The position numbers were made by a program, and so were the translations under genes. Below, piece after piece: positions 1,819-39,517 of a stretch of 64,000 nt of DNA (positions are counted from its first letter, which is position 1; the number at the start of each line of letters is the position of its first letter). The notes under the pieces are model-generated. The model ran no database searches, was not told where the DNA came from, and saw only the letters and a program-made list of their open reading frames with translations. The stretch is from an uncultured Acidimicrobiaceae bacterium (GTDB taxonomy: Bacteria > Actinomycetota > Acidimicrobiia > Acidimicrobiales > Palsa-688), in NCBI GenBank assembly GCA_963729695.1, contig CAVSOT010000007.1:425332-489331 (forward strand), read 5' to 3'.

Positions 1819-2000
1819 CAAAATGGATGTTAGCGGGCAGACGTCCAGGCCTGCTCGTTTGATGCACCCCGATATGAGGTCCAGCCCGGTGAATACAACT
1901 GAATAGAGGGAATGCAAGTGAATAGAATGGCGGTCACGTCGAGGTATCGAGGGACCGTCGCCGGACTCTCGAGGAACCAAAGTCGAGGTTCAAGGAAGCC

Positions 2001-3353
2001 GTGACCGCCCCCACTTCGCTGGAGGAAATTGCCGACGGCCTGGTGGCCGTGGTCAGGAGCAGTTGCCCGACGTGCGTGACCGTGGCTCCGGTTCTCGCCG
2101 AGCTGGCGTCGGAAGCCTCGTTGACGGTCATCAGCCAGGACGACCCGGGATTCCCTGACGGGGTCGAGTCGGTGGTCCTCGACCAGGATCTCCACCTGTC
2201 CTGGCTTCTCGGCATCGAGACGGTGCCAACCCTCCTCCGCGTAGCCGACGGGCGCGAGTCGGCCCGAGAGATCGGCTGGCACCGCAGCCGTTGGGAGACC
2301 CTCAGCGGCGTCCGGGAGTTGGGTGAGGGGCTTCCCGAACAGCGGCCGGGATGCGGCTCGCTGTCGGTCGAACCCGGTGTGGCCGAGGCGCTCGACGTCC
2401 GCCACCGACGCCAGATCATGCGCTCCCGTCGAGTCGAGTTCTCCGTGCTGGAGGACGAGTTCGAGGGCATGTGGGCGCGAGGGTGGACCGATGGGTTGCC
2501 GGTGGTGCCGCCAACCGAGGCGCGGGTCTTGGCCATGCTGGACGGCGCCCGGCGCGACCCCGACGAGGTGGTCGGGATCGTGGCGCCGAATCTGGTCCCG
2601 GTGACGGTGGAGAAGGTCGCGGTCAACGCAGTAATGGCCGGATGCCGTCCCGAGTACCTTCCCGTCGTCCTCGCTGCGGTCGAAGCCACCTGCACTGAAG
2701 GGTTCAACATCCACGGGGTGTTGGCCACCACGTTCTCCGTGGGGCCGGTGATCATCGTCAATGGTCCAGTGGCCCGCGCTATCGGTGTGAACAGCGGCGT
2801 CAACGTCCTGGGCCAGGGCAACCGGGCCAACTCGACCATCGGTCGGGCCCTTCAGCTGGTGGTTCGCAACGTCGGGGGCGGCCGTCCCGGCGGCGTCGAC
2901 CGAGCCACCCTCGGCAACCCCGGGAAGGTCGGTTTGTGTTTCTCAGAGGACGAGGAGGGTTCGCCTTGGGAACCGCTCTCGGTAGAGCGGGGAGTGCCCG
3001 ACGGAGTTTCCGCCGTCACCGTGTTCGCTGGAGGGGGGACGCACTCCATCTCCGACCAGACGGCCCGGACACCTGAAGATCTCAGCCGTACCCTGGCGTC
3101 CGGGTTGCGATCGGTGGACACCCTGCTGCTGGTCTCGCCTGATCACGGCCGGACCTTTCGGGACGGTGGCTGGTCGAAGGCCCGGTTGCGCGCCGCACTC
3201 GAACAGCCGAACCAGCGAACCGGGATGCTCGGAAGCCGAGAGTTGCTGATCGTGTATGCGGGTGGGGGCGCCGGGCTCTTCTCCGGCGCCATGGAGGGCT
3301 GGGGTGGTGGCCCCATGGGTAGCATGCACGTGACACGGGAGGTTCGACCATGA
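2001..3353 (+). CDS. fusion protein: N-terminal thioredoxin-fold domain (CPTC) + uncharacterised ~300-aa 'domain X'
   Basis: GTG start preceded by AAGGAAG. SSCPTCVTVAPVL...ETVPTLL is a thioredoxin-like CxxC fold. The C-terminal part (about 2433..3353) has two paralogs in the window (about 30410..31425 and 32109..33189) sharing GLPxxPPT, AGCxPEY, NGP, RANxTxGRA and FCFxED motifs. Confidence 0.85.
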   Translation: MTAPTSLEEIADGLVAVVRSSCPTCVTVAPVLAELASEASLTVISQDDPGFPDGVESVVLDQDLHLSWLLGIETVPTLLRVADGRESAREIGWHRSRWETLSGVRELGEGLPEQRPGCGSLSVEPGVAEALDVRHRRQIMRSRRVEFSVLEDEFEGMWARGWTDGLPVVPPTEARVLAMLDGARRDPDEVVGIVAPNLVPVTVEKVAVNAVMAGCRPEYLPVVLAAVEATCTEGFNIHGVLATTFSVGPVIIVNGPVARAIGVNSGVNVLGQGNRANSTIGRALQLVVRNVGGGRPGGVDRATLGNPGKVGLCFSEDEEGSPWEPLSVERGVPDGVSAVTVFAGGGTHSISDQTARTPEDLSRTLASGLRSVDTLLLVSPDHGRTFRDGGWSKARLRAALEQPNQRTGMLGSRELLIVYAGGGAGLFSGAMEGWGGGPMGSMHVTREVRP

Positions 3354-3395
3354 CGCCGATCGAGATGCCGTCGGGCGGGTATCGCGCTGAGTACC

Positions 3396-3923
3396 TTGCT
3401 GGACCCGACGGCTGAGCTCGCCCCCGCGAGCAGGGCGCTCGTCTCCCGCCCTGCTGGCCTCGACGGGTTGACCATCGGTCTGCTCGACATCTCCAAGCCC
3501 AGAGGTGACGTGTTCCTCGACCAGCTCGCGCAGCGACTGCACGGGCGGGGATGGAGCGTCCTGCGCTATGCAAAACCAACCTTCACCAAGCCGGCGCCCA
3601 TCGATCTTCGCCAGGAGATCGCCGTCCAGTGCGACGTGGTGATCGAGGCCCTCGCCGATTGAGGCAGCTGTACGTCGTGCAGTGTGCACGACATCGCCGA
3701 CCTGGACTCGCGAGGCGTGCCAGGCGTGTTTGTGGCGTCCCGCGAGTTCATCCCTGCCGCCGCGGCCCAGTCCGAAGGTCTCGGTTTTCCCGCCGCCGCG
3801 GTCTTTGTCGACCACCCGATACAGGATCGCACCGACGAGGAGGTCAGAGCCCTGGCTGACGGCGCCCTGCCTGCGCTTCTCGCCGCGCTCACCAACCCTG
3901 CGCCCACCCGCAGCGCGGACTGA
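3396..3923 (+). CDS. UGSC-motif selenoprotein (TGA 3660-3662 read as selenocysteine); function unknown
   Basis: ORF-track fragments 3396..3662 and 3684..3923 share one frame and are split only by TGA. Read-through gives ...VVIEALAD-U-GSCTSCSVHDIADL.... A paralog with the same TGA context lies at 31761, a hairpin lies 11 nt downstream, and the sel genes are in the window. The start is uncertain (TTG 3396, or ancestral ATG 3350 in another frame). Confidence 0.8.
3674..3692 (+). promoter_or_regulatory. SECIS-like RNA hairpin downstream of Sec codon
   Basis: Perfect inverted repeat GTCGTGCA-GTG-TGCACGAC starting 11 nt after TGA 3660-3662. The apical region contains GU. Confidence 0.55.
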
Positions 3924-4004
3924 GCGACCACTGTCGCCGGCGGACCCCGTCGGCGGACCCCTCCGGCCGAACCTGGGGAGGACCGCGACGTCTACGATCT
4001 CGGT

Positions 4005-4838
4005 GTGCACTGGGGGATCGGCTCCGTTCGGGTGACCAAGGTGGTCGAGTACGAGACGTCCGGCCCGTTCCCGAGACTGCTGCTTGGAGCCCCAACCGAC
4101 CTCGCCGAGAAGCACAGGTGGCTCTCCCCGCATTTCGTGACCGACGACGGCGAGGCCCGAACGTCGATTCACGGCCTGGTTGTCGATACCGGGGCCCACC
4201 GGATTCTCGTCGACACCTGTATCGGGAGCATGCGGGAGATGTCGAGCGTGCCCCTCTCACCCAGCGGGTTCCTGGACGCCCTGAACGCAGCCGGCTACGG
4301 CGTGGACGATATCGACACCGTCTTGTGCACCCATCTCCATTTCGATCACGTCGGTTGGAACACCCGCTTGGTGGACGGTCAGTGGCAGGTCACCTTTCCA
4401 AAGGCCCGTTATCTGTTCAGCCGGTCGGAATGGGAGCATTGGCAGACGGCGACCAGCGGGCTGGTGGACATCGCCCACACCGTGGAGCCCGTGGTGGCGG
4501 CCGGCCAAGCCGAGATGGTCGAAGTCGACTGCGTGGTCTGCGACGAGGTTCGGCTTGAGCCGACACCCGGCCATACGCCCGGCCACGTCAGCGTGGTGAT
4601 CGAGAGCGCCGGCGAGCGGGCCGTGATCACGGGCGATCTGGCCCACCATCCGGTCCAGTTCGCCGAGCCACAGCTCGGCAGCCCCGCGGACTCCGATCGG
4701 GCCGAGGCGGTGGAGACGCGCCGTCGCTTCCGGGAGGAGCGTGGCGCCGACGGCGCCTTGGTCATCGGCACCCACTTTGGCGGACCTACTGCCGGGCGGA
4801 TCGTCTGTGAGGGAACGTCATGGCGCTTCGCTGTCTAG
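4005..4838 (+). CDS. MBL-fold metallo-hydrolase (lactonase-like)
   Basis: HxHxDH motif (CTHLHFDHVGW) and a later HTPGH. The GTG start is uncertain by a few codons. Confidence 0.8.
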   Translation: MHWGIGSVRVTKVVEYETSGPFPRLLLGAPTDLAEKHRWLSPHFVTDDGEARTSIHGLVVDTGAHRILVDTCIGSMREMSSVPLSPSGFLDALNAAGYGVDDIDTVLCTHLHFDHVGWNTRLVDGQWQVTFPKARYLFSRSEWEHWQTATSGLVDIAHTVEPVVAAGQAEMVEVDCVVCDEVRLEPTPGHTPGHVSVVIESAGERAVITGDLAHHPVQFAEPQLGSPADSDRAEAVETRRRFREERGADGALVIGTHFGGPTAGRIVCEGTSWRFAV

Positions 4839-4889: not shown

Positions 4890-5861
4890 TCAGGATTGAC
4901 TCGGAGCGGGAAGGCGCAAGCGTGGCCATACCTCTCGCACCGCCAGCTCGATGACGTCCAGGCTGTCCTCGAAGACCGCAGGCGAGATGATAAAGGTGCG
5001 GGCGCCGGCATCGACAAACGCCTGGAGCCGAGCGGCGACCTCAGCGGGCGTCCCAGCCGGCGCAACCCGCTCGGCCTTGGCCACCTTGTCGGGAGTCCGG
5101 TAGGCGTACCCGAAGAAGCGGCCGATCTCGTCTCGCGCCTGGTCCCCATCCTTGCGGATGGCGCACTTCACGGTCAGCATCCACTCGAATCCGTCGAGGT
5201 CTCGGCCCCGACGCGTCGCCTCCTCGCGGACGACCCGCACGGACTCCGCGTACGCCCGGGGTGACACGAGGTACGGCATCCAGCCGTCGCCGGCCCGGGC
5301 GGCGCGGCGCATCGCCGCCGGCTTACGACCCGATATGACCACAGGCAACTGGCGCGGGCGGGTCGCCGTCTCGTCTGCCCCGAGGGGCTGGACCCGGTGC
5401 AACTGGACGTCGTCGAGGTGGAAGTAGCGCCCGTGGTGGGTCACCGGCTCACCGGTCCACAGCGCCCGCATGACTTCGAGGGCTTCGTCGGTTCGCTGGC
5501 CTCGCTCTGTGATCGGGCTCCCGACCGCTTCGAACTCTTCGGGAAATTCGCCGCCGACACCGATGCCGACCGCAAGCCGGCCGCCCGAGTGGGCGTCGAG
5601 GTCGGCCAACTGCTTGGCCACCAGCACGGGATGATAAAGAGGTAGGACGAGCACCGCCGTGCCGATGCGTACCCGTTCGGTCCATGCCGCGAGCAGGGCG
5701 ACGCGTGTGATCGTCTCGCCCCGCGGGCCCCGAGGAAGGATGTGACCGCCGTGCCAGATGGACTCGATGGGCAGGCGTTCCGCCGCGGCCAACCAGGCTC
5801 GATCCGGCTCGGGGATTGCCGCGGCCCCGAACACGATGCGGTCGGCTATCGCCGCTGGCAT
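4890..5861 (-). CDS. LLM-class (probably F420-dependent) oxidoreductase
   Basis: Luciferase-like TIM-barrel signature stretches (RVRIGTAVLVLPLYHPVLVAKQLADLD, GRLAVGIGVGG). Start trimmed to ATG 5861 (MPAAIADRIVFG...), since the upstream 79 codons of the ORF are Arg/Pro-rich and non-coding-like. Confidence 0.8.
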   Translation of the reverse strand: MPAAIADRIVFGAAAIPEPDRAWLAAAERLPIESIWHGGHILPRGPRGETITRVALLAAWTERVRIGTAVLVLPLYHPVLVAKQLADLDAHSGGRLAVGIGVGGEFPEEFEAVGSPITERGQRTDEALEVMRALWTGEPVTHHGRYFHLDDVQLHRVQPLGADETATRPRQLPVVISGRKPAAMRRAARAGDGWMPYLVSPRAYAESVRVVREEATRRGRDLDGFEWMLTVKCAIRKDGDQARDEIGRFFGYAYRTPDKVAKAERVAPAGTPAEVAARLQAFVDAGARTFIISPAVFEDSLDVIELAVREVWPRLRLPAPSQS

Positions 5862-29298: not shown

Positions 29299-31425
29299 GT
29301 GCACTCATCGTGGTTGACACCCGGCGGACCGTGTGAGACGGTGATGTTTGCTTTGAGCCGAGCAGGTAGTTCGTTGAGGACAACCGCTGTCGTCGGAGCC
29401 GGGGCCAGCGGCCTGTCGGCCGCCTGGCACGTGGCCCGTCGGGGTCATCACGTCATCCTGATCGACCATCAGGGGGCCGGGGGACAACTGTTGAACGTTG
29501 GCGTCATCGAGTCCGTTCCTGGTCTCGGGTCGTCGGTACGGGGGCCCGACCTGGTCGCTCGAATGGTGCAGCAGATGGATGAGCAGAAGATCGAGTGGCT
29601 GCACGAGCGGGCTGTCAACATCGGGCACCGGTCGAACCGGTTCCGGATCCTCACCGACGCGGGTTCCGAGGTCGTGGCCGACGCCGTCATCGTGGCAACC
29701 GGATCTTGGCACCGCCAACTCGGTGTTCCCGGCGAGGACGCCCTCGAGCACCGGGGCGTGTCCCACTGCGCCGTCTGTGACGGCCCGCTCTACCGGGATC
29801 GACCAGTAGCAGTGGTGGGTGGCGGCGACGCGGCCGCCGACGCCGCCGCCTACCTGGCCGGCATCTGCTCGCGGGTTCACCTCGTGCACCGAGCGGGTCG
29901 ACTCGAAGCGGTTGATGCCTTGTGTCGCCGGCTCTATGGGCTCCCCAACGTGGAGCATTGGCCCGACACGGAGGTGCGTCGCATCGGTGGGGACACAGCG
30001 GTCGAGGCGGTGGAGATCGAAGACGGCGCCGGGGGGAGGCGGAGCATCGAAGTAGCCGCTGTCTTCGTCGCCGTCGGGATGGATCCCGACGCCTCCTTGG
30101 TCGCCGGCCTCGCCCAGCTCGACCCCTCAGGATGCGTGGCGGTCGATGCCGGCCTGATGACAAACGTCCCGGGCCTGTTCGCCGTGGGAGCGGTCCGGGC
30201 GGGGACCTCCGGCCAGCTGGCGGGCTCCATCGGCGACGGTGTCGCCGCCGCCGCGGCCGCGGATGGGTGGCTTCGGTCCCAGCGCCCGCCGGCCGGTAGT
30301 CCAGGGTTGGCTCGTAGTCCAGGGTCGGCTCGTAGTCCAGGGTCGGCCCTTCGTCCGGGATGGGCCGGTGGTCCCGGATGGCCCGGCAACGCCACTCGCA
30401 CCCGTCGTCTCGACGATGGCTCGGACTACGTCGACTACGGCGACTTCTTCGACTCGATGGGCGAAGTCGGGGTCGGCGATGGATTGCCTCTTGTGCCGCC
30501 TACACCGGCGCGTTTCGACCGCTTCGCCACCGCGTTGGCGTGCGATCCCTACGAACTGCTGCCGGCTCTTCCGGACGGCCGCCGGCTGCGCTACGCCGAC
30601 CTCGTCATGTCCGCCATCCTGGCCGGCTGCCGCCCGGAGTACATGCCGGTGGTCGCGGCCGCAGCCGAGTCGCTGTTGACGGATCTCGCCGGCCGGCAAC
30701 CGCGACTGCCCGACTCCGTTGCGGTCGTCCTCGTCAACGGTCCCGTCCGGGAGACGATCGGCCTCAATTGCTCGGACGGCCTCTTCGGGCCGGGGTGGCG
30801 AGCCAATGCCACCATCGGGCGGGCCGTTCAGCTGTTCCTCCGTGGGCAGGTCGACGATCGCCGGCCGACCGGGTTCGGCGACGCCGGACAGATCGCGTTC
30901 TGCTTCGGAGAAGATGAACAAACGTCGCCCTGGACGCCACTGCACGTCCAGCGGGGATTAGATCCAGGCCAGAGCACGGCCACCGTTTTCGTGGCCAACG
31001 CCTACCGGCACATGCTGGACCGTCAGAACACTGATGCGGACGGGATCATCGAGTACCTGCGGCTGTTCCTTCGCGGCCGGGCCTCAGGAACCCGACTGTT
31101 CGGCGACGTCCCGCTAACCCTGATGGTCGTCATCGGTCGGGAGCTGCGGCGCCAGTTGGCCCCGCGCTATTCGAAGGCGGAGCTATCCGAACGGCTGTTC
31201 GACCTTCTGACCCTGGACGACGGGACGCCCTTTGGGCCAATCGACGTGCCCGATGCCGACCACGTTCTGATCGTCGGGGCGGGAGGCGTCGCCACCCCCG
31301 CACTATGGTGCTTTGTCGCGGCGGCGTCGCCGCCCGTTACCGTGCCGGTCCGCGATCCGGGACTCGCCTTCGGATCTGGGCCGCCGCCACGAGCTCGAGA
31401 GATGAGCCAAGGAGAAGCGAGATGA
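29299..31425 (+). CDS. fusion protein: thioredoxin-reductase-like flavoprotein (CAVC) + Pro/Gly-rich repeat linker + domain X
   Basis: VVGAGASGLSAAWHVARRG (FAD GxGxxG), GVSHCAVCDGPLY (TrxB-type redox disulfide), VVGGGDAAADAA (NADPH site) and GLFAVGAV. The C-terminal DGLPLVPPTPAR...LAGCRPEYMPVV...VNGPV...WRANATIGRA...FCFGEDEQ is domain X. Start may be ATG 29344. Confidence 0.85.
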   Translation: MHSSWLTPGGPCETVMFALSRAGSSLRTTAVVGAGASGLSAAWHVARRGHHVILIDHQGAGGQLLNVGVIESVPGLGSSVRGPDLVARMVQQMDEQKIEWLHERAVNIGHRSNRFRILTDAGSEVVADAVIVATGSWHRQLGVPGEDALEHRGVSHCAVCDGPLYRDRPVAVVGGGDAAADAAAYLAGICSRVHLVHRAGRLEAVDALCRRLYGLPNVEHWPDTEVRRIGGDTAVEAVEIEDGAGGRRSIEVAAVFVAVGMDPDASLVAGLAQLDPSGCVAVDAGLMTNVPGLFAVGAVRAGTSGQLAGSIGDGVAAAAAADGWLRSQRPPAGSPGLARSPGSARSPGSALRPGWAGGPGWPGNATRTRRLDDGSDYVDYGDFFDSMGEVGVGDGLPLVPPTPARFDRFATALACDPYELLPALPDGRRLRYADLVMSAILAGCRPEYMPVVAAAAESLLTDLAGRQPRLPDSVAVVLVNGPVRETIGLNCSDGLFGPGWRANATIGRAVQLFLRGQVDDRRPTGFGDAGQIAFCFGEDEQTSPWTPLHVQRGLDPGQSTATVFVANAYRHMLDRQNTDADGIIEYLRLFLRGRASGTRLFGDVPLTLMVVIGRELRRQLAPRYSKAELSERLFDLLTLDDGTPFGPIDVPDADHVLIVGAGGVATPALWCFVAAASPPVTVPVRDPGLAFGSGPPPRAREMSQGEAR
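30296..30385 (+). repeat. in-frame 18-nt (6-aa) tandem repeat, 5 diverging copies, forming the inter-domain linker
   Basis: GTAGTCCAGGGTTGGCTC / GTAGTCCAGGGTCGGCTC / GTAGTCCAGGGTCGGCCC / TTCGTCCGGGATGGGCCG / GTGGTCCCGGATGGCCCG, encoding GSPGLARSPGSARSPGSALRPGWAGGPGWPG. Confidence 0.7.
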
Positions 31426-32112
31426 ACCCTCTGGTGCGTCCGGTGAACGTTCGAAACGAGGTCGGAGTGGTGTGCGACCCGCTCGCTCCCTTGCCGGCCG
31501 GCGATGGCCGCGCCGAGCGGACCGTTGCCTCCCGGCCCTCGTCGCTCGACGGCAAGGTGCTCGCCGTGATCGACAACGGGATGGGCCAGCAAGCTCCAGG
31601 ACTGGGTTTCGGAGAGGTCTTGGTCCGGAAGCTGAAGGAGGTGGCCGACATTGCCGATGTCATCTACGTTCGCAAGGACGCGGTCAACGTCCCCCCTCGC
31701 CCAGAGGACTGGATGGAGATATGCCGTCGTGGCGACGTCGGTCTGGCCCTCTACGGCGCTTGAGGGAGTTGCAGCTCGCGCAGTTTCGCGCGACGCCATA
31801 GAGCTCGAGTGGGCTGGCATACCGGCAGTAGCGGTGGTGCACGAGGCGCTGGCCGGCTCGGCCGACGCCATGAGGTTGATGTCGGGGATCCCGCACTATC
31901 CGTTTCTCGAGGTCAACTTCCCGTTACCCCCGGTCGGCCCGTGGACCGTCGAGCAGGTTGAGGCTGTGTGCGACGAGCTGCTCCCCGGAGTGATCGAACA
32001 ATTGACCCACGACATCGCCGGGCCCGCGGCGCGTGACCAGCAGTCCGCCCCTGCGCTGGTCCCTGCCGGTGATGCCGTCGCAGAGGATCGGCCGAGGGCC
32101 CCGGCGCCGTGA
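31422..32112 (+). pseudogene. UGSC-motif (seleno)protein paralog; needs TGA 31761 recoding and a +1 frame correction near 31779 (pseudogene or assembly indel)
   Basis: ATG 31422 overlaps the upstream stop (ATGA). Frame 0 gives ...DVGLALYGA-TGA-GSCSS. The homologous continuation AVSRDAIELEWAGIPAVAVVHEAL...PFLEVNFP is in the +1 frame through TGA 32110-32112. The span is 3n+1 nt. Confidence 0.6.
31776..31793 (+). promoter_or_regulatory. SECIS-like hairpin downstream of second in-frame TGA
   Basis: TCGCGC-AGTTTC-GCGCGA, starting 12 nt after TGA 31761-31763. The loop contains GU. Confidence 0.4.
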
Positions 32113-33189
32113 CAGCCGGCGGTCAGACCCGGACGTTCGCCGATTATGACGATTTCTTCGATGACTTTGTCGAGCGCGGCGCTACGGATGGGCTTCCCAT
32201 CATCCCCCCGACCCCAGCCCGAGTGGACGCTGCTCTGGCCGCGGCCGGGCTGGATGGACGCGAAGTGTTGGGGGAGATTCCCACCCGGGATGTCGTGGTG
32301 GACGCCCGGCGGGTCGCGATCAACGCAGTCATGGCGGGGTGCTTGCCCGAGTACATGCCTGTCGTGGCGGCCGCGGTGCGAGCGTGGACGCATCCGCTGG
32401 CCAATGGGCACGGCGTCACCGGGAGCCTCGCCGGGCCGACCAATCCCATCATCATCAATGGTCCCATCGCGACGGAGCTCGGGTTCAACGGTGGGGCGGG
32501 GTGCTTCGGGCCGGGCTGGCGAGCCAATGCCACGGTGGGACGAGCACTTCGTCTGATCGTCAGGAACGTCGCTCTGTCGATACCCGGCTTCGCCGATCGC
32601 GCCGCCTACTCCCAGCCTGGGCGCTTCACGTTCTGCTTCTGCGAAGACCAACAATCGACCGTCTGGAACCCACTCCACGTCGAGCGCGGCTACCGCCCCG
32701 AGGACAGCGTGGCAAGCGTGCATTCGAACACGGACATCTTCACCTATCGCAGCGAGGAGCCCGACCCGGAGGGCCTCCTCGACGGCCTCGTGACCCTCGC
32801 TCGGGCTCGTCCGGTCCAGAAGGAGGACTTCGTGGGCCAGTGGCGCAGCGTGGTCATCGGTAATTGGACCGGATCACCGCGACGTCCTGGAGCGCAACGG
32901 ATGGTCGAAGGCAGCTGTCCGCGAGTATTTGCATCCTCGGTTGACGATGCCGGACACGTTCGAGCCGGGCGCTCGGACCGTCTGGGGTAGCCAACCGACG
33001 GGAAGCCTGGGTGAGTACTCGTTCTATATCCCGAACGCCGACAACGTCCTCCTCGTTGCCGCCGGGGGGAGGTCGGCCTTCCAATCTGTCGTTTTGTACC
33101 CCCACGTGTCCAGCACCGTCTCCGCCGAGGTCACCTTCGACGGTTCGCGCGGCCGGTTGGTCCCCGACGACAGCATCGTGTGCGGTTGA
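32109..33189 (+). pseudogene. stand-alone domain-X paralog with +1 frame discontinuity at about 32862 (pseudogene or assembly indel)
   Basis: GTG 32109 overlaps the upstream stop (GTGA). Frame 0 carries DGLPIIPPTPAR...MAGCLPEYMPVV...INGPI...WRANATVGRA...FCFCEDQQ...WRSVVIG. The homologous C-terminus (IGPDHRDVLERNGWSKAAV...LLVAAGG) continues in the +1 frame to 33189. The span is 3n+1 nt. Confidence 0.6.
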
Positions 33190-33865: not shown

Positions 33866-34870
33866 TCAGTCGAGCGCGACCATGGGCGGTCCGGGCCCGA
33901 CCTCTCCAATCTCCCACCACCCGTTTCCGGCCAGGACCCCAGCGTCGTCGGGATGGACCGAGACGAGGAGTCCTCCCGAGGTTTGGGGGTCGATGGCCAG
34001 AGCCTCCAGGCTGGGTTCGGCCGCCGACGACAGATGGCCCTGCAAGTAGGCCCGGTTTCGGGCATCACCGCCCGTGCGCACCCCGGCCGTGGCGGCGCGC
34101 TTGGCCCCCGGATACAGAGGGAGGGCGGCCGAGTCGAACCGGATCGAGGCGCCTGACCTCTCGGCAATTTCCCAACCGTGACCAACCAGGCCGAACCCGG
34201 TCACGTCGGTGACTGCGTGCGCCGCCGGCCCGTAGTCTCGATCAGGAAGCTGCGCCAGTTGCTGCGCCGCCTTCCTGTTGAGCACTCGCATCTGCCCGAT
34301 CGTGGCCGTTTTCGAGCCTTCGTCGGTGCTGGCCAGCACGATGCCGGAGCCCAGCGGTTTGGAGAGGAGCAAGCGATCCCCCGCCAGGGCGCCGCCTTTG
34401 GTCCAGATCCGCTCGGGATCCACCAGCCCTTGGACAGCGAGGCCGAAGATCGGTTCGGCCGACCGGATCGTGTGGCCGCCGGCAATCGTCCCCCCGGCTT
34501 CGGCGACCACGGCGGCGGCCGCCTCCAGGATGGCTGCGATCGCATCTGGGGGGAATTCCTCGGGAAAGGCGGCAATGTTGAGAGCGGTGATCACCCGTCC
34601 TCCCATGGCGAATACGTCGCTGCAAGCGTTCGCGGCTGCGATGGCCCCGAAGTCGGCCGGATCGTCCACCAGGGGTGGGAAGAAGTCGGTGGTGGACACG
34701 ACCGCCAGTTCGGGCGATAGCCGGTACACAGCGGCGTCGTCGAAGGGGGCCAGACCGACGAGGAGATCAGCGTCCTCGGTCCCGGCGACCAGGTCCACCA
34801 GCCCGCTCAACGCGGCGCCGCCCCATTTGGCCGCGCACCCTCCACAGGATGTCCATTCGGTCAGTTTCAC
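33866..34870 (-). CDS. selD: selenide, water dikinase (selenophosphate synthetase), Cys-type
   Basis: LTEWTSCGGCAAKWGG N-terminal active-site loop followed by the AIR-synthase-like fold (DDAAVYRL..., DFFPPLVDDP, TDVTGFGLVGH). GTG 34870 overlaps the selA stop (GTGA). The longer ORF-track N-terminus overlaps selA and looks non-coding. Confidence 0.9.
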   Translation of the reverse strand: MKLTEWTSCGGCAAKWGGAALSGLVDLVAGTEDADLLVGLAPFDDAAVYRLSPELAVVSTTDFFPPLVDDPADFGAIAAANACSDVFAMGGRVITALNIAAFPEEFPPDAIAAILEAAAAVVAEAGGTIAGGHTIRSAEPIFGLAVQGLVDPERIWTKGGALAGDRLLLSKPLGSGIVLASTDEGSKTATIGQMRVLNRKAAQQLAQLPDRDYGPAAHAVTDVTGFGLVGHGWEIAERSGASIRFDSAALPLYPGAKRAATAGVRTGGDARNRAYLQGHLSSAAEPSLEALAIDPQTSGGLLVSVHPDDAGVLAGNGWWEIGEVGPGPPMVALD

Positions 34871-36180
34871 GGACCAGATCCTTCCGTTGGTGAGGGGGCC
34901 GCGTGGGCGGGCCCTGACAACGCCGCTCGTATCGCCTCGCCGAGGTCGCCGTCCTGGTGCTCGAAAACGGCGCGCATCTCGCAGAGGGTGCGGCCCTTTT
35001 CGACCCTGGGGATCACGGGAGGTTGCCAGCTGCGCAGGGGCGCGGAGATATCGCCTTCGATGGCCACGGCAACCGAGGGGATGAGCACGCCGGGGAGCGT
35101 TCCACCCCCCATGGGAGCCGCCGTATCGACCACCTCGCCGACAGCCAGGCGCTGTGCCCTTTGGCGGAGATCCGGCAACGGAGTCGTGGCCAGCTTCCAC
35201 AGCGGCACGGTGGACCCGGCGTCACGCCGCAGGTAGGCCAAAGCGACGTTCTGAAGTGCTTCCAGGACCAGGCCGCCCGGGCGGAGCACCCGGGCCAGCG
35301 GGTGCCGGCGGCACCTGTCCACCAGGGTGCTCGAACCGGCGATGATGCCGGCCTGCGGGCCGCCGAGCAGCTTGTCGCCGCTGAAGGTGATCAGGTCGGC
35401 TCCAGCCGACAGCGTCTGGCGGCACGCCGGTTCTCCCCCCAGCCAGTCTGGTGGACCGTCGGAGAGCCACGGGCAGGCCGCGTCCAGCAGCCCGGACCCG
35501 AGGTCGACCACCACCGGTGCTCCCAGCCCTTTGAGCTCCCGGACGGCGACCGACTCGGTGAAGCCACTGACGCGAAAGTTGGAGGTGTGGACCTTGAGCA
35601 CCAACGAGGTGAGAGGACCGATGGCCGCCTCGTAATCTCCTCGCTTGGTCCGGTTGGTGGTCCCAATCTCGACCAGCTGCGCACCCGAGGTCGCCAGGAT
35701 CTCCGGTATCCGGAATCCTCCGCCGATCTCGACGAGCTCTCCCCGGCTCACGATCACCTGGCCACCGCCACCGGCGAGCGCGGTGAGGGCGAGGAGGACG
35801 GCGGCCGCTCCGTTGTTGACCACCAGGGCCTCCTCGGCGCCGCACGCTTTGGCGATCAGGGTGGCGGCGTGCGCGGAGCGGTCGCCCCTGCTGCCGGCAT
35901 TGACGTCGAATTCGAGATTTGAGTACCCCGCCACGCGCTCGACGGGCAGCGGCGCTCTGCCGAGATTGGTGTGCAACAGCACCCCGGTTGCGTTGACGAG
36001 AGGCCGGAGGAGGCGCCGCCGGGTGTCGGCGGCTACGGCGGCCGCCCGTTGCAGGATGGTGTCCCCGTTGCCGTCCTCGCGGAGGACCGTCCTGGCCACG
36101 TCGACCAGAATCGGATGAGGCAGACCTGACGGCGCCAGCTGGCGGGCCAACGAGTCCACCGATGGTGGGCGGTGCGCCAC
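34867..36180 (-). CDS. selA: L-seryl-tRNA(Sec) selenium transferase
   Basis: VNATGVLLHTNLGRAPL, and the PLP-lysine motif FSGDKLLGGPQAG. Confidence 0.9.
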   Translation of the reverse strand: MAHRPPSVDSLARQLAPSGLPHPILVDVARTVLREDGNGDTILQRAAAVAADTRRRLLRPLVNATGVLLHTNLGRAPLPVERVAGYSNLEFDVNAGSRGDRSAHAATLIAKACGAEEALVVNNGAAAVLLALTALAGGGGQVIVSRGELVEIGGGFRIPEILATSGAQLVEIGTTNRTKRGDYEAAIGPLTSLVLKVHTSNFRVSGFTESVAVRELKGLGAPVVVDLGSGLLDAACPWLSDGPPDWLGGEPACRQTLSAGADLITFSGDKLLGGPQAGIIAGSSTLVDRCRRHPLARVLRPGGLVLEALQNVALAYLRRDAGSTVPLWKLATTPLPDLRQRAQRLAVGEVVDTAAPMGGGTLPGVLIPSVAVAIEGDISAPLRSWQPPVIPRVEKGRTLCEMRAVFEHQDGDLGEAIRAALSGPAHAAPSPTEGSGP

Positions 36181-36258
36181 GCCCGTAGGCTAGCCCTGAT
36201 GAGCATCGCCGACAGAGCCTGCATCCGCGTCGTAGTGGGGCGGGGCGGGCTGCTCCGG

Positions 36259-36351
36259 CGGAGGTGGACGGGAATCGAACCCGCCGCTGTGGGTGCGCCA
36301 CAGCCAACCGCTTTGAAGGCGGCGGAGTCCACCAGGTACTCGGACACCTCC
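36259..36351 (-). tRNA. selC: tRNA-Sec (anticodon UCA)
   Basis: The reverse complement reads GGAGGTGTCCGAGTACCTGGTGGACTCCGCCGCCTTCAAAGCGGTTGGCTGTGGCGCACCCACAGCGGCGGGTTCGATTCCCGTCCACCTCCG. It has a 7-bp acceptor (GGAGGTG/CACCTCC), anticodon loop CTTCAAA, a long variable arm (GCTGTGG-CGCAC-CCACAGC) and a 6-bp T-stem with loop TTCGATT, giving 13 stacked acceptor+T base pairs as in tRNA-Sec. It lies between selA and selB. Confidence 0.85.
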
Positions 36352-36452: not shown

Positions 36453-38183
36453 ATGGCGGTAATCGCGACAGCCGGTCACGTCGATCACGGGAAGTCGACA
36501 TTGGTATTGGCCTTGACCGGCGTCGATCCCGATCGTCTCCCTGAAGAGCAAACGAGAGGCATGACGATCGATCTGGGGTTCGCCCACACCACGCTGAAAT
36601 CGGGTCGACAGGTTTCTTTTATCGACGTTCCCGGACACGGGCGATTCGTGAAGAACATGTTGGCCGGTGTGACAGGAGTGGACGGCGTCCTTTTCGTCGT
36701 CGCCGCCACGGAAGGGTGGAAAGCCCAGTCGGAGGAGCATCTGGCCATATTGGAACTGACCGGCGCCCCGGCCGGGGTGGTGGCGTTCACCAAGGTTGCC
36801 GGAGTTCCACGAGCCCAGCTCGAGGCCGTGGTGGCGGACTGCCGCCGCTTTCTGTCTGGTTCTTTCCTCGCTGATGCGGAGATCGTTTTCGTCGATGTGC
36901 CGCACAACGTCGGACTGCCAGAGCTGCAGGATGCCCTCGACAGATTGGTCGGTAAGGTCGCTGCGCCAGTGGACTGCCGGCGGCCCAGACTGTGGATCGA
37001 CCGTTCCTTTTCCGTTCGGGGGACTGGGACCGTGGTGACGGGGACACTCAACGATGGGCCGCTCGCGGTAGGGGACATCGTCGCCGTGCAGCCGGGGCGT
37101 CGCCCCGTGCGGATCCGGGGCCTCCAGAGCAACGGTCGCCCGCTCTCGGACGCGTCGCCGGGCTGTCGGCTGGCGGTCAACCTGGCGGATACGGCGGTGA
37201 CCGAGGTGCGTCGCGGTCAGGCCGTGGTGCGACCCGACGAGTGGCATCTGACGCGGACGTTCGACGCCTCCCTCCAGGTGCTGCGGTCGGTCGCCCACGA
37301 GATTTCCCAGAAGGGCGCCTTCACGGTCCACATCGGCACGTCTGCGGTTCCGGTCCGGATCCGCGTGATCGGCGAGGAAACCCACCTGGGAGCTGGCGAG
37401 GAAGGATTCGTTCGGGTGTGGATGCAAAGGGGCTCCACCCTTCCGTTGGTACCCGGTGACCGGTACATCCTTCGGGAAGCCGGCCGAGCCGAAACGGTCG
37501 GAGGTGGCGAGGTCCTCGATGTCGATCCGTTGCTGGGCGCCAAACGGGCGATGCCTTCGAAATCGGCAGAGCGGGTGGTCAGCGAGCGCGGCTGGGTGGA
37601 CGTGGACGAGCTGCAACGGCTGACCGGGCAGACGCTGGCGCCCAACGCCGGCCGGTGGGTCGTGGACCCCGCCGTGCTGGCTGCCCAGCGGGAAGACCTG
37701 AAGGCCAGGTGTCGGGCGGCCGGTCGGAGCGGTTTGGACACGGCCACCCTGGATGACCTGCAGCGTGCCATTCTCGACTTGGGCCTCGACGGTATCCGCG
37801 TGGCGCATGGACGAGCGGTTGACGAGTCCTCCTCGGAGGAGCTCAGCACGGATGAAACCCGGGTGCTCCGCATTCTCGAGTCGAGTCCCTGGGACCCCCC
37901 GGATCTGCCGCTCGGAGACAGAGGGGCCTTGCGGCGGCTGCAACGCCTGGGACTCGTCGTGGAGTCCGAGAGCATCTGGTTTGCCACCTCAGCGGTGGAA
38001 AAGGCCATGGCGGTGATCGTCGGGCTCGTCCGGGATCACCAGGAGGGATTCACCGTTGCCCAATTTCGCAGTGCGCTCGGCACGAGTCGCAAATTTGCCC
38101 TGCCGCTCCTGCGTTATGCAGATACCGCAGGCCTCACCAAACGCGAGGGTGATTTCCGGAAGCTGAGGCATACCGAAAGTTGA
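36453..38183 (+). CDS. selB: selenocysteine-specific translation elongation factor
   Basis: G-domain AGHVDHGKSTL, DVPGH and a C-terminal winged-helix extension. 576 aa. Divergent from tRNA-Sec/selA. Confidence 0.9.
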   Translation: MAVIATAGHVDHGKSTLVLALTGVDPDRLPEEQTRGMTIDLGFAHTTLKSGRQVSFIDVPGHGRFVKNMLAGVTGVDGVLFVVAATEGWKAQSEEHLAILELTGAPAGVVAFTKVAGVPRAQLEAVVADCRRFLSGSFLADAEIVFVDVPHNVGLPELQDALDRLVGKVAAPVDCRRPRLWIDRSFSVRGTGTVVTGTLNDGPLAVGDIVAVQPGRRPVRIRGLQSNGRPLSDASPGCRLAVNLADTAVTEVRRGQAVVRPDEWHLTRTFDASLQVLRSVAHEISQKGAFTVHIGTSAVPVRIRVIGEETHLGAGEEGFVRVWMQRGSTLPLVPGDRYILREAGRAETVGGGEVLDVDPLLGAKRAMPSKSAERVVSERGWVDVDELQRLTGQTLAPNAGRWVVDPAVLAAQREDLKARCRAAGRSGLDTATLDDLQRAILDLGLDGIRVAHGRAVDESSSEELSTDETRVLRILESSPWDPPDLPLGDRGALRRLQRLGLVVESESIWFATSAVEKAMAVIVGLVRDHQEGFTVAQFRSALGTSRKFALPLLRYADTAGLTKREGDFRKLRHTES

Positions 38184-38339
38184 GTTGAAGACGGTGCTGA
38201 TTTCGGAGCAAGGCTGGATCCGCCTTTCTGGTCGACCAGCCGAAAAGGTGGGCATCCCAGCGCCCGGCGTGAGCAGCCAAGGGCATGCCGCCTGACGCCG
38301 GGCTCGATTGACGGGGTGAGCGGGCGCTGCTAGCTTCGG

Positions 38340-38903
38340 ATGCAAAACCTTGACCTGTCGCGAGCCGGAAGGGATTCGAGCGTGAACTGGCTGGGACGTG
38401 AGGCCGATGAGGCCACGGAGCTCGAGCGGGTGTTGGGTCTTCTCCCGGACGCTCACGAAGCGGTGAGGGAGTTCTATTCCATCTTTTGGGTGGACGAGCT
38501 GGTCGATCCGGTCCTCCTCGAGTTGATCCGCCTCAGGGTGGCGATGTTGCACGGGGTCCAATCGGAGCTCCTTGTCCGCTATGACGTCGCCAGGGAGCGG
38601 GGCCTGACCGAGGAAAAGGTTGCCGTTCTGTCGTCGTGGCCGACGTCGCCGCTCTTTACCGAGCTCGAGCGCCGGGTGCTGGGCCTGACCGAGCAATTCG
38701 TGATGGACCCCCATGGCGTCACCGACGACGACGTGTTGCCGATCAAGGAGGCGCTGACATCGGCCGGGTTGGTTGCGCTCGTCAATGCCATGGCCCTGAT
38801 CGACCACTTGGACCGCGTTCGCGTGGCCTTTGAAATTCCGCCCGCCGACGGAGACCGGGTGCTGGTCGTGGCCGGGCCCGGCCCCACGTCGCCTTTGTAC
38901 TGA
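38340..38903 (+). CDS. carboxymuconolactone decarboxylase (AhpD-like) family protein, Cys-less
   Basis: AhpD-like helical pattern (LIRLRVAMLHGVQSELLV, where CxxC normally sits). The protein contains no cysteine. Confidence 0.7.
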   Translation: MQNLDLSRAGRDSSVNWLGREADEATELERVLGLLPDAHEAVREFYSIFWVDELVDPVLLELIRLRVAMLHGVQSELLVRYDVARERGLTEEKVAVLSSWPTSPLFTELERRVLGLTEQFVMDPHGVTDDDVLPIKEALTSAGLVALVNAMALIDHLDRVRVAFEIPPADGDRVLVVAGPGPTSPLY

Positions 38904-38926
38904 GCCCATCGACGAGGAGAAACCTG

Positions 38927-39517
38927 ATGACCGTTAGCTCTGATCCCGTAGCGACGAAAGAGCCCCGCAGGTACCGGTTGAGTCATACCGGGGAGTTGTT
39001 CCCGCTGGGTTTCAAGCCCGCCTCGTCCCCCCGCATCGACGCAGACGTCGAGAGCAACCCCTTGCCGACATGGGACGGTCAGCCCGGCTTGGCCAAAGCG
39101 TTCATGAAGCACGACGAGGCCGTGTTCTGCCGGGATGGGAGCGGCCTGATTCCCATGGACGTCAAGGAGCCCGTCCGTCTCCGCGTGGCCCGAGTCGGGG
39201 GCTGCAAGATCTGCAGCAACACTCGAAACGCGGTGGCGCGCGATCAGGGCGTCAGCGAAGAGATGCTCGACCAGGTCACGGATCACTACGAGGAGTCGGG
39301 GCTTACCGATTACCAGAAGGTGGCGCTTCGTTACGCCGATGCGATCCTGTTGTCGACGCCCCCGTCGGACGAGTTGAAGCGCGAGCTGCTGCAACACTTC
39401 ACGGTCGAGCAGATCGTCGAGCTCACTCTCTTTGTGAGCCAGTGCCGGGTGTTCGCTGCCGTCACGATCGTGGAAGGAATCCAGCCTGACGAGATGCCGG
39501 AGAAGTGGGTCCACTGA
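38927..39517 (+). CDS. carboxymuconolactone decarboxylase (AhpD-like) family protein with CxxC
   Basis: LRVARVGGCKICSNTRN (CxxC at the AhpD core position). Confidence 0.75.
   Translation: MTVSSDPVATKEPRRYRLSHTGELFPLGFKPASSPRIDADVESNPLPTWDGQPGLAKAFMKHDEAVFCRDGSGLIPMDVKEPVRLRVARVGGCKICSNTRNAVARDQGVSEEMLDQVTDHYEESGLTDYQKVALRYADAILLSTPPSDELKRELLQHFTVEQIVELTLFVSQCRVFAAVTIVEGIQPDEMPEKWVH

Follow-up and report, generated by a model that had tools for sequence, protein, structure and literature searches.

The 64,000-nucleotide stretch of DNA analysed here (the window) comes from an uncultured Acidimicrobiaceae bacterium (assembly GCA_963729695.1, contig CAVSOT010000007.1, positions 425,332 to 489,331 of the forward strand), and positions 3396-3923 on its plus strand are one gene of the UGSC selenoprotein family, in which the TGA at 3660-3662 is a selenocysteine (Sec) codon and not a stop. 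We have shown that this gene forms the downstream half of a translationally coupled two-gene module that is conserved across four phyla. Taken as a whole, the account that we develop from these data, namely a Sec-decoded UGSC gene, its partner module and a two-part reductase driven by thioredoxin, is in our judgement probably right.

The coding sequence begins with TTG at 3396 and runs over 175 codons, including that for Sec, to the stop codon TGA 3921-3923. It appears as two open reading frames (ORFs), 3396..3662 and 3684..3923, which share one frame, lie 288 nt apart and have only TGA 3660-3662 and seven sense codons between them. The 175-aa read-through product contains ...CDVVIEALAD-U-GSCTSCSVHDIADLDSRGVPGVFV... 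(Sec-spanning peptide EALAD-U-GSCTSCSVHDIADLDSR), and the Sec codon takes the first position of U-G-S-C-T-S-C, a UxxCxxC motif, in the context ALAD-U-GSCTSCSVHD, where U-GSCTSC spans 3660-3680. When U was replaced by C for profile scoring, this product matched the NCBIfam model NF041046, "UGSC family (seleno)protein", with 151.1 bits (curated cut-off 125) and the Pfam model PF24696 with 145.4 bits (cut-off 25), over model positions 2-171 of 172. The protein carries the U/C-G-S-C signature of the family, and the Sec column is occupied by cysteine (Cys) in most full-length homologs. An earlier, sequence-only reading had joined the two ORF fragments into one gene and proposed the UGSC family for it; a single profile that covers both halves now bears out the joining, and the scores above both cut-offs establish the family. 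The fragments belong to a run of four consecutive, TGA-separated ORFs in the same frame (1926-4838, plus strand), which comprises the partner gene, the N-terminal and C-terminal halves of the UGSC gene and a gene resembling metallo-beta-lactamase (MBL)-fold lactonases. A single long read-through product of this run was considered and rejected, because the ends of the partner and UGSC genes agree with the family models and with the gene calls of a syntenic contig, L001. Only the middle TGA of the run is a Sec codon, and the others coincide with gene ends in relatives.

Decoding of UGA 3660-3662 as Sec is supported by comparison with related genes at several distances. Among database homologs, the close relatives (70-94% identity) are about 97-103 aa long and end exactly at ...EALAD, since gene callers treat the Sec codon as a stop; the more distant ones, at 45-68% identity, extend over the full length and for the most part have Cys at the Sec column. 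The DNA of reference genomes was also scanned with only the part of the protein that follows U as the query, which gave at least 588 confirmed loci; the best 80 of these, together with L001, make up the 81-locus set used below. These loci span Actinomycetota, Chloroflexota, Myxococcota and Pseudomonadota, and TGA stands directly before GSCT(S/T)C in 80 of the 81, with TAG in the remaining one. In the distant homologs L083-L086 the Sec codon is aligned with the Cys codons TGT or TGC. The placing of the TGA at the head of a U-G-S-C motif, which the earlier reading had drawn from this window alone, is borne out by the TGA in nearly all of these loci and the Cys codons in the distant homologs. Additionally, codon-level conservation downstream of the TGA has the pattern expected of a protein-coding frame. 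Compared with L001 (about 96% identity over the UGSC gene), the codons after the TGA contain 16 synonymous and five non-synonymous differences, 17 of the 22 changed bases are at third positions, and all five non-synonymous differences fall in the last few residues of the C-terminal tail. This excess of synonymous change indicates that the frame after the TGA is translated and under purifying selection.

A hairpin of the selenocysteine insertion sequence (SECIS) type lies directly downstream of the codon. Its upper part, at 3674..3692 on the plus strand, begins 11 nt past the UGA and consists of an 8-bp stem, GUCGUGCA/UGCACGAC, closed by the loop GUG; in a weaker lower stem, the UGAGG region is often paired with about 3700-3705. 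Over 68 distinct sequences, 98.2% of the pair cells of the hairpin are standard pairs, as against 1.7-59% when the partners are slid. Compensatory changes are present, pair 18-30 occurring as G-C, G-U and A-U and pair 21-27 as C-G and U-A, and the observed number of doubly changed cells was reached by none of 500 shuffles. Third-position entropy is only 0-0.2 bits in five of the seven hairpin codons (ACG TCG TGC AGU GUG CAC GAC), with the His codon as an exception at 0.78 bits, both variants of which still pair; at four-fold sites flanking the hairpin the entropy rises to 1.2-1.9 bits, and in the Ser codon that precedes it even the choice between AGY and UCN varies. In the distant Cys forms L083, L085 and L086 the CTSC..HD peptide is kept with other codons and the hairpin is absent. 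It is still present in three variants of the Sec codon, namely TAG in L050 (5998-6000), TGT in L084, the closest Cys form, and a true TGG in the Trp form L082. Retention in L084 and L082 is as expected if their codon changes are very recent, and the variants in all three loci have arisen very recently by mutation or else are errors in the reads. Single-sequence folding of 3660-3720 was no more stable than that of shuffles (z = 0.97), as is expected for GC-rich coding sequence, so the case for the SECIS is a comparative one. An Rfam scan of the whole window returned tRNA-Sec only and matched no SECIS family. In its general plan the element is like the fdhF-type SECIS of Escherichia coli: the hairpin lies inside the coding sequence, its upper stem starts 11 nt past the UGA, G-U is conserved in its small apical loop, and a weaker lower stem often takes in the UGA itself. 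It departs from the fdhF element in that its 8-bp stem is perfect, its loop has 3-5 nt and the bulged U is missing. Its sequence is nearly invariant across phyla because the conserved peptide TSCSVHD is encoded there too.

The second gene of the module lies immediately upstream. This partner gene (2001..3353, plus strand, 450 aa) encodes a thioredoxin-fold N-terminal domain with CPTC, a conserved RPGCGS linker and an uncharacterised domain of about 330 aa, and its stop codon, TGA 3351-3353, overlaps ATG 3350, the ancestral start of the UGSC gene, as ATGA. Of the 71 loci whose sequence reaches far enough, 70 have a partner gene directly upstream of the UGSC gene and in the same orientation, and a partner gene also precedes the Cys-form UGSC genes with a 4-nt overlap. 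Homologs of the partner number more than 8000 at 58-95% identity and bear the source label "thioredoxin family protein". The partner matched no Pfam family; weak thioredoxin profile matches were obtained in 23 of 28 members, and an NCBIfam scan of the 28 sequences (E <= 10) gave nothing but thioredoxin-type models. Foldseek matched residues 1 to about 105 to thioredoxin, ResA and CcmG (probability 1.0; template modelling (TM) score about 0.55-0.63), the N-terminal domain gave profile matches to thioredoxins in the PDB, and its CPTC is nearly invariant. The thioredoxin fold of the UGSC system, together with its CxxC, is thus found on the partner protein.

The C-terminal 330 aa or so of the partner have no counterpart in the PDB by sequence or by fold, Foldseek having found only the thioredoxin domain. 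The family to which this domain belongs (2418-3350 and 30301-31422 in the window; P0246-P0395) is covered by no Pfam or NCBIfam model, and a search of 1.84 billion representative proteins placed the domain in 3062 clusters. Motifs conserved across its architectures are DGLP, AGC, NGP, GPGxRANATIGRA and CFGEDE, together with two nearly invariant cysteines. The domain occurs alone (about 320-360 aa), fused to thioredoxin (about 450 aa), in tandem (about 710-740 aa) and fused to thioredoxin reductase (about 640 aa; P0247, P0264). In P0300, P0302 and P0322 an N-terminal UGSC domain is joined to the partner domain in one polypeptide; a fusion of UGSC with "Unknown_1" has been reported earlier (PMC2398784). 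We conclude that the UGSC protein and the partner domain work together, because their adjacency is conserved, a second, paralogous pair is found in the same window and covalent fusions exist.

This second pair occupies 29299-32112 on the plus strand. Its upstream gene (29299..31425) encodes a thioredoxin-reductase domain (TIGR01292, 264 bits; Pyr_redox_2) followed by the same uncharacterised domain; the product is 37% identical over 235 aa to the partner at 2001..3353 (E = 8e-38), and its stop codon overlaps ATG 31422 of a divergent UGSC-type gene (31422..32112). In this paralog, TGA 31761-31763 stands before GSC (...LALYGA-TGA-GSC). The gene runs in its initial frame from 31422 to about 31785 and contains an extra base within 31781-31788, 7-9 codons past the TGA, so that the remainder, RDAIELEW...APAP, is in the +1 frame and stops at 32110-32112. 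Deleting any one base in 31781-31788 restores UGSCSSRS(L/F)RDAIELEW, which is the consensus of five homologs. The frame-repaired paralog scored 67.5 bits against NF041046, below the cut-off of 125, and its five homologs carry PF24696; it therefore belongs to a divergent Pfam subfamily and is not an NF041046 equivalog. These five known relatives are all Cys forms (CGSCSSR..RDAIELEW), and the paralog is the sole TGA form seen in the subfamily. Of the "same arrangement" that had been read into this locus, the TGA before GSC stands, but the gene is frameshifted and belongs to a divergent subfamily with the motif UGSCSSR whose known relatives all have Cys. A candidate hairpin, UCGCGC-AGUUUC-GCGCGA, begins 12 nt past the UGA; the Cys form L087 lacks it, which speaks for a genuine Sec codon in the paralog. 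A 293-aa ORF (32109-32990, plus strand) without Pfam or NCBIfam match starts at a GTG that overlaps the stop codon of the paralog, and it could be a third component of the paralogous module.

The fold of the UGSC protein was approached through a Cys ortholog, P0003, that is about 65% identical to it. The AlphaFold model of P0003 has a predicted local distance difference test (pLDDT) score of 91.4 and comprises five beta-alpha units, with the U/C residue placed where a strand ends and a helix begins. Foldseek searches of the model against the PDB gave generic flavodoxin-, lumazine-synthase- and CheY-like matches with TM <= 0.5 and no thioredoxins. On the strength of this model the UGSC fold is predicted to be flavodoxin-like, not thioredoxin-like, and the thioredoxin-like fold assumed in the literature is therefore unsupported. 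The UGSC protein does share with thioredoxin-fold selenoproteins (thioredoxin-like, peroxiredoxin-like, DsbA-like and SelW-like) a Sec/Cys pair two residues apart at the N-terminus of a helix and the interchange of Sec with Cys, but unlike them it is predicted to form a five-stranded parallel beta-alpha sandwich. PDB sequences were also searched with the UGSC protein and with its profile; the matches, to designed armadillo repeats, an acetyltransferase and a CxxC peptide of TET3, were all spurious and were discarded.

Among characterised enzymes, a resemblance is seen to selenoprotein B (GrdB, GrdF, GrdH and PrdB; TIGR01917, NF040794, NF040795, TIGR01918 and PF07355). When 21 UGSC members were compared with 18,950 NCBIfam models, GrdF was matched by ten of them (best E = 4.4e-4), GrdB by nine, TIGR01918 by four and GrdH by three; where coordinates are shown, the matches fall at profile positions of about 333-403, and no unrelated family recurs. 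A UxxCxxC motif characterises GrdB, GrdF and GrdH (PMC6778437, PMC13188914), and the U-GS-C-TS-C of the UGSC protein fits it. Judged from such sequence similarity, these matches support a remote relationship of the UGSC protein to the Sec-bearing part of selenoprotein B. The two systems are also alike in that a second subunit without selenium is encoded next door and that the thioredoxin system is the likely reductant. They differ in size, the UGSC protein having about 175 aa as against about 430 aa in GrdB and about 240 aa in PrdB, and in subunits: selenoprotein-B systems have a GrdE/PrdA pyruvoyl proenzyme, which the UGSC partner was not by any test run, and GrdA and GrdC genes were not found in the regions scanned around UGSC genes. 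The hosts differ as well, being mostly aerobic Actinomycetota, Chloroflexota and Pseudomonadota as opposed to the Stickland-fermenting anaerobes that carry selenoprotein B. Since the UGSC hosts are mainly aerobes, Stickland fermentation chemistry is unlikely.

These comparisons suggest how the module may work. SelB and tRNA-Sec encoded in the same window would read UGA 3660-3662 as Sec, directed by the hairpin at 3674-3692, and the resulting UGSC protein of about 19 kDa would contribute the selenol, as the redox subunit, to a two-part reductase. A substrate may be bound or activated on the C-terminal domain of the partner, where the selenolate of the UGSC protein would attack or reduce it and, together with the Cys of UxxC three positions further along, form a selenenyl-sulfide. 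Re-reduction of this bond would fall to the thioredoxin domain of the partner, which would in turn be recharged from NADPH by thioredoxin reductase. In the paralogous module, thioredoxin reductase is fused straight to the partner and may serve as the electron input. Such a logic, like the UxxCxxC motif, would resemble that of selenoprotein B in the glycine, sarcosine, betaine and proline reductases.

Several observations weigh against this account. The matches to selenoprotein B score 12-16 bits, whereas the cut-offs of TIGR01917, TIGR01918 and NF040794 are 602-800; PF07355 (GRDB) was not recovered in Pfam scans of the 21 UGSC members (E <= 10), and the partner showed no GrdE or PrdA similarity in the NCBIfam scan (E <= 10). 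The faint likeness to GrdB/PrdB that had been noticed by eye in the sequence thus survives in part: weak matches recur in about half of the 21 members and the UxxCxxC motif agrees, but every score lies below its cut-off and PF07355 is unmatched. In the fused and paralogous forms, W or R stands in place of the third Cys of UxxCxxC. Neighbourhood clustering of 76 loci found no gene besides the partner that is conserved across phyla; the partner is the only conserved neighbour, so there is no pathway context. The model of the C-terminal domain of the partner has low-confidence stretches. Lastly, with the ancestral start of the 3396 copy out of frame and no obvious Shine-Dalgarno sequence for TTG 3396, this particular copy may be unexpressed.

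At the level of the gene, two other explanations have to be weighed. The simpler of them takes TGA 3660-3662 as an ordinary stop that separates two small proteins, one of 88 aa and one of 79 aa starting at GTG 3684, which is also the annotation made by automatic gene callers in related contigs (genes 5001-5312 and 5334-5573, and many entries of about 97-103 aa). Yet all 81 loci keep the frame across the TGA, full-length Cys homologs and a single hidden Markov model span both halves, the SECIS is conserved and the predicted fold requires both halves, and we regard this explanation as effectively refuted. The other concerns the start of the gene. The Shine-Dalgarno sequence GGGAGG (3337..3342, plus strand), read from the sequence and conserved in L001, would serve ATG 3350, and the closest orthologs start with MTPMEMPSNGYRSSTLLDP.... 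Here, ATG 3350 opens only a 21-codon out-of-frame remnant on the plus strand (3350..3415), MTPIEMPSGGYRAEYLAGPDG, which ends at TGA 3413-3415, and the frames of the two contigs part after ...YR(A/S). A single extra G at about 3389 (plus strand) has put the ancestral start and the body of the gene into different frames; it is the only coding-region indel relative to L001 in the 3.95 kb that the two contigs share at 92.5% identity. The one remaining in-frame start is TTG 3396, which coincides with the beginning of the conserved core, and expression of the 3396 copy would need initiation there, unless the extra base is a sequencing error. The 3396 copy might accordingly be a recently inactivated pseudogene that makes little or no UGSC protein, with the frameshifted paralog dead as well. 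The N-terminal extension is in frame in all close orthologs, TTG 3396 has no clear ribosome-binding site, and the chance that two random indels in 64 kb both strike UGSC-type genes is about 3.5e-4; about 30 other genes of the window have intact, unsplit domains, so that the frame breaks are concentrated in the UGSC-type genes. Against inactivation, the UGA, the SECIS and the stop codon are intact, as is the whole conserved core, TTG 3396 lies precisely where the Pfam model begins, and the 15 residues lost are variable in the family and disordered in the model. Re-initiation at TTG 3396 is also plausible because the remnant ORF ends just 17 nt beyond it. In addition, selA, selB, selD and tRNA-Sec look intact, and the extra base may be a single-base assembly error. 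The two frame breaks may reflect context-specific sequencing error or real inactivation; on balance, we hold inactivation to be possible but unlikely.

At the level of the protein, it could be argued that UGSC is a stand-alone, thioredoxin-like thiol/selenol oxidoreductase whose adjacency to the partner is a mere operonic convenience. Its UxxC does sit at a strand-to-helix junction, as in CxxC oxidoreductases. However, the confident model is a five-unit parallel beta-alpha fold of flavodoxin or Rossmann type without thioredoxin matches in the PDB, and a convenience of this kind would have to account for an arrangement kept in 70 of 71 loci of four phyla with overlapping stop and start codons, as well as for covalent fusions of the UGSC protein with its partner. 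We therefore consider a stand-alone oxidoreductase very improbable. Scarcely less improbable in our view is that U/C-x-x-C-x-x-C-x-x-H-D forms a set of metal or iron-sulfur ligands, or a selenium or sulfur carrier site, in place of a cycling redox pair. Three closely spaced Cys/Sec residues and a His-Asp are nearly invariant in the main family, and CxxCxxC is the classic spacing for cluster binding. However, neither the third Cys nor the His is kept in the paralog subfamily (CGSCSSR..RD) or in the fusions (CGSCTAW, CGNCTSW), and the fusions of the partner with thioredoxin and thioredoxin reductase point to dithiol/selenol redox chemistry. With the third Cys and the His-Asp restricted to the main family, U/CxxC is the universal core, which argues for redox cycling over cluster binding.

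The window also holds the machinery for Sec decoding. The selD (33866 to about 35200) and selA (34867-36180) genes and tRNA-Sec (36257-36351; found by ARAGORN and by Rfam, the latter with 64 bits) are on the minus strand, and selB (36453-38183) is on the plus strand. All four are present and look intact, in agreement with the complete set that the sequence-only reading had recognised. Two CMD/AhpD-like genes adjoin selB at 38334-39517 on the plus strand, one with CKIC and the other without a Cys pair. AhpD-like proteins are a known selenoprotein class, and these two were considered as further selenoproteins and rejected, since neither has an in-frame TGA. Elsewhere in the family, the UGSC Sec codon is followed on its own strand, after about 2.2-3.7 kb, by tRNA-Sec; this holds for Halopseudomonas, Noviherbaspirillum, Marinobacter and a betaproteobacterial metagenome-assembled genome (MAG). 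The loci concerned are L053, L061, L071, L072, L074 and L080, in the region about 0.2-3.7 kb past the UGSC gene. In L074 and L053, selA and selB were confirmed to lie between the UGSC gene and tRNA-Sec, and ORF clustering suggests that they do so in the others as well. In the cultured hosts Halopseudomonas (H. pachastrellae/xiamenensis) and Noviherbaspirillum soli, partner, UGSC, selA, selB and tRNA-Sec follow one another as one island. In the Halopseudomonas, Noviherbaspirillum, Marinobacter and betaproteobacterial loci, the arrangement has the look of a compact Sec island centred on this one selenoprotein.

The window as a whole has the gene content of an aerobic catabolic region, with three luciferase-like monooxygenases, several amidohydrolases, a Rieske oxygenase and a P450, and it further holds a molybdoenzyme of the xanthine-dehydrogenase type, coenzyme A (CoA)-transferases and acyl-CoA ligases. 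MBL-fold genes occur near both UGSC loci of the window, but they are mutually unrelated and not conserved elsewhere. The closest relatives of the UGSC module are found in MAGs of the Acidimicrobiales and Acidimicrobiaceae.

The UGSC family has been known since the marine selenoproteome surveys of 2005-2008, the last of which assumed it to be thioredoxin-like. Far from being obscure, the "UGSC-containing protein" of Zhang and Gladyshev was among the most abundant selenoprotein families in the Global Ocean Sampling (GOS) survey (PMC2398784), and a 2026 review lists NF041046 among the selenoproteins whose functions are "largely uncharacterized" (PMC13188914). The present locus therefore adds a member to a known family. 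Like the catalogued UGSC proteins (NF041046/PF24696), which are about 150-175 aa long and mostly Sec forms with rarer Cys forms, it gives a full-length match and contains U-G-S-C; it differs from them in that its ancestral start has been lost to a 1-nt insertion, and nothing excludes its membership. That ordinary gene callers split this curated selenoprotein family into two fragment ORFs, here and in most database entries, matters for annotation and is not new biology.

In summary, what was found here beyond the catalogued family is a conserved partner module, Rosetta-stone fusions, a putative built-in electron input from thioredoxin or thioredoxin reductase, a flavodoxin-like fold as predicted by the model, and a possible link to selenoprotein B. 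Tentatively, and with a little less than an even chance of being right, UGSC proteins and their partners may together represent a hitherto unrecognised, very widespread and thioredoxin-driven selenoenzyme of aerobes, a compact relative of selenoprotein B that acts with a catalytic domain of new fold and for which alone several Proteobacteria would keep their Sec island. The comparative context turns an abundant family of undefined function into a concrete, testable reductase model.

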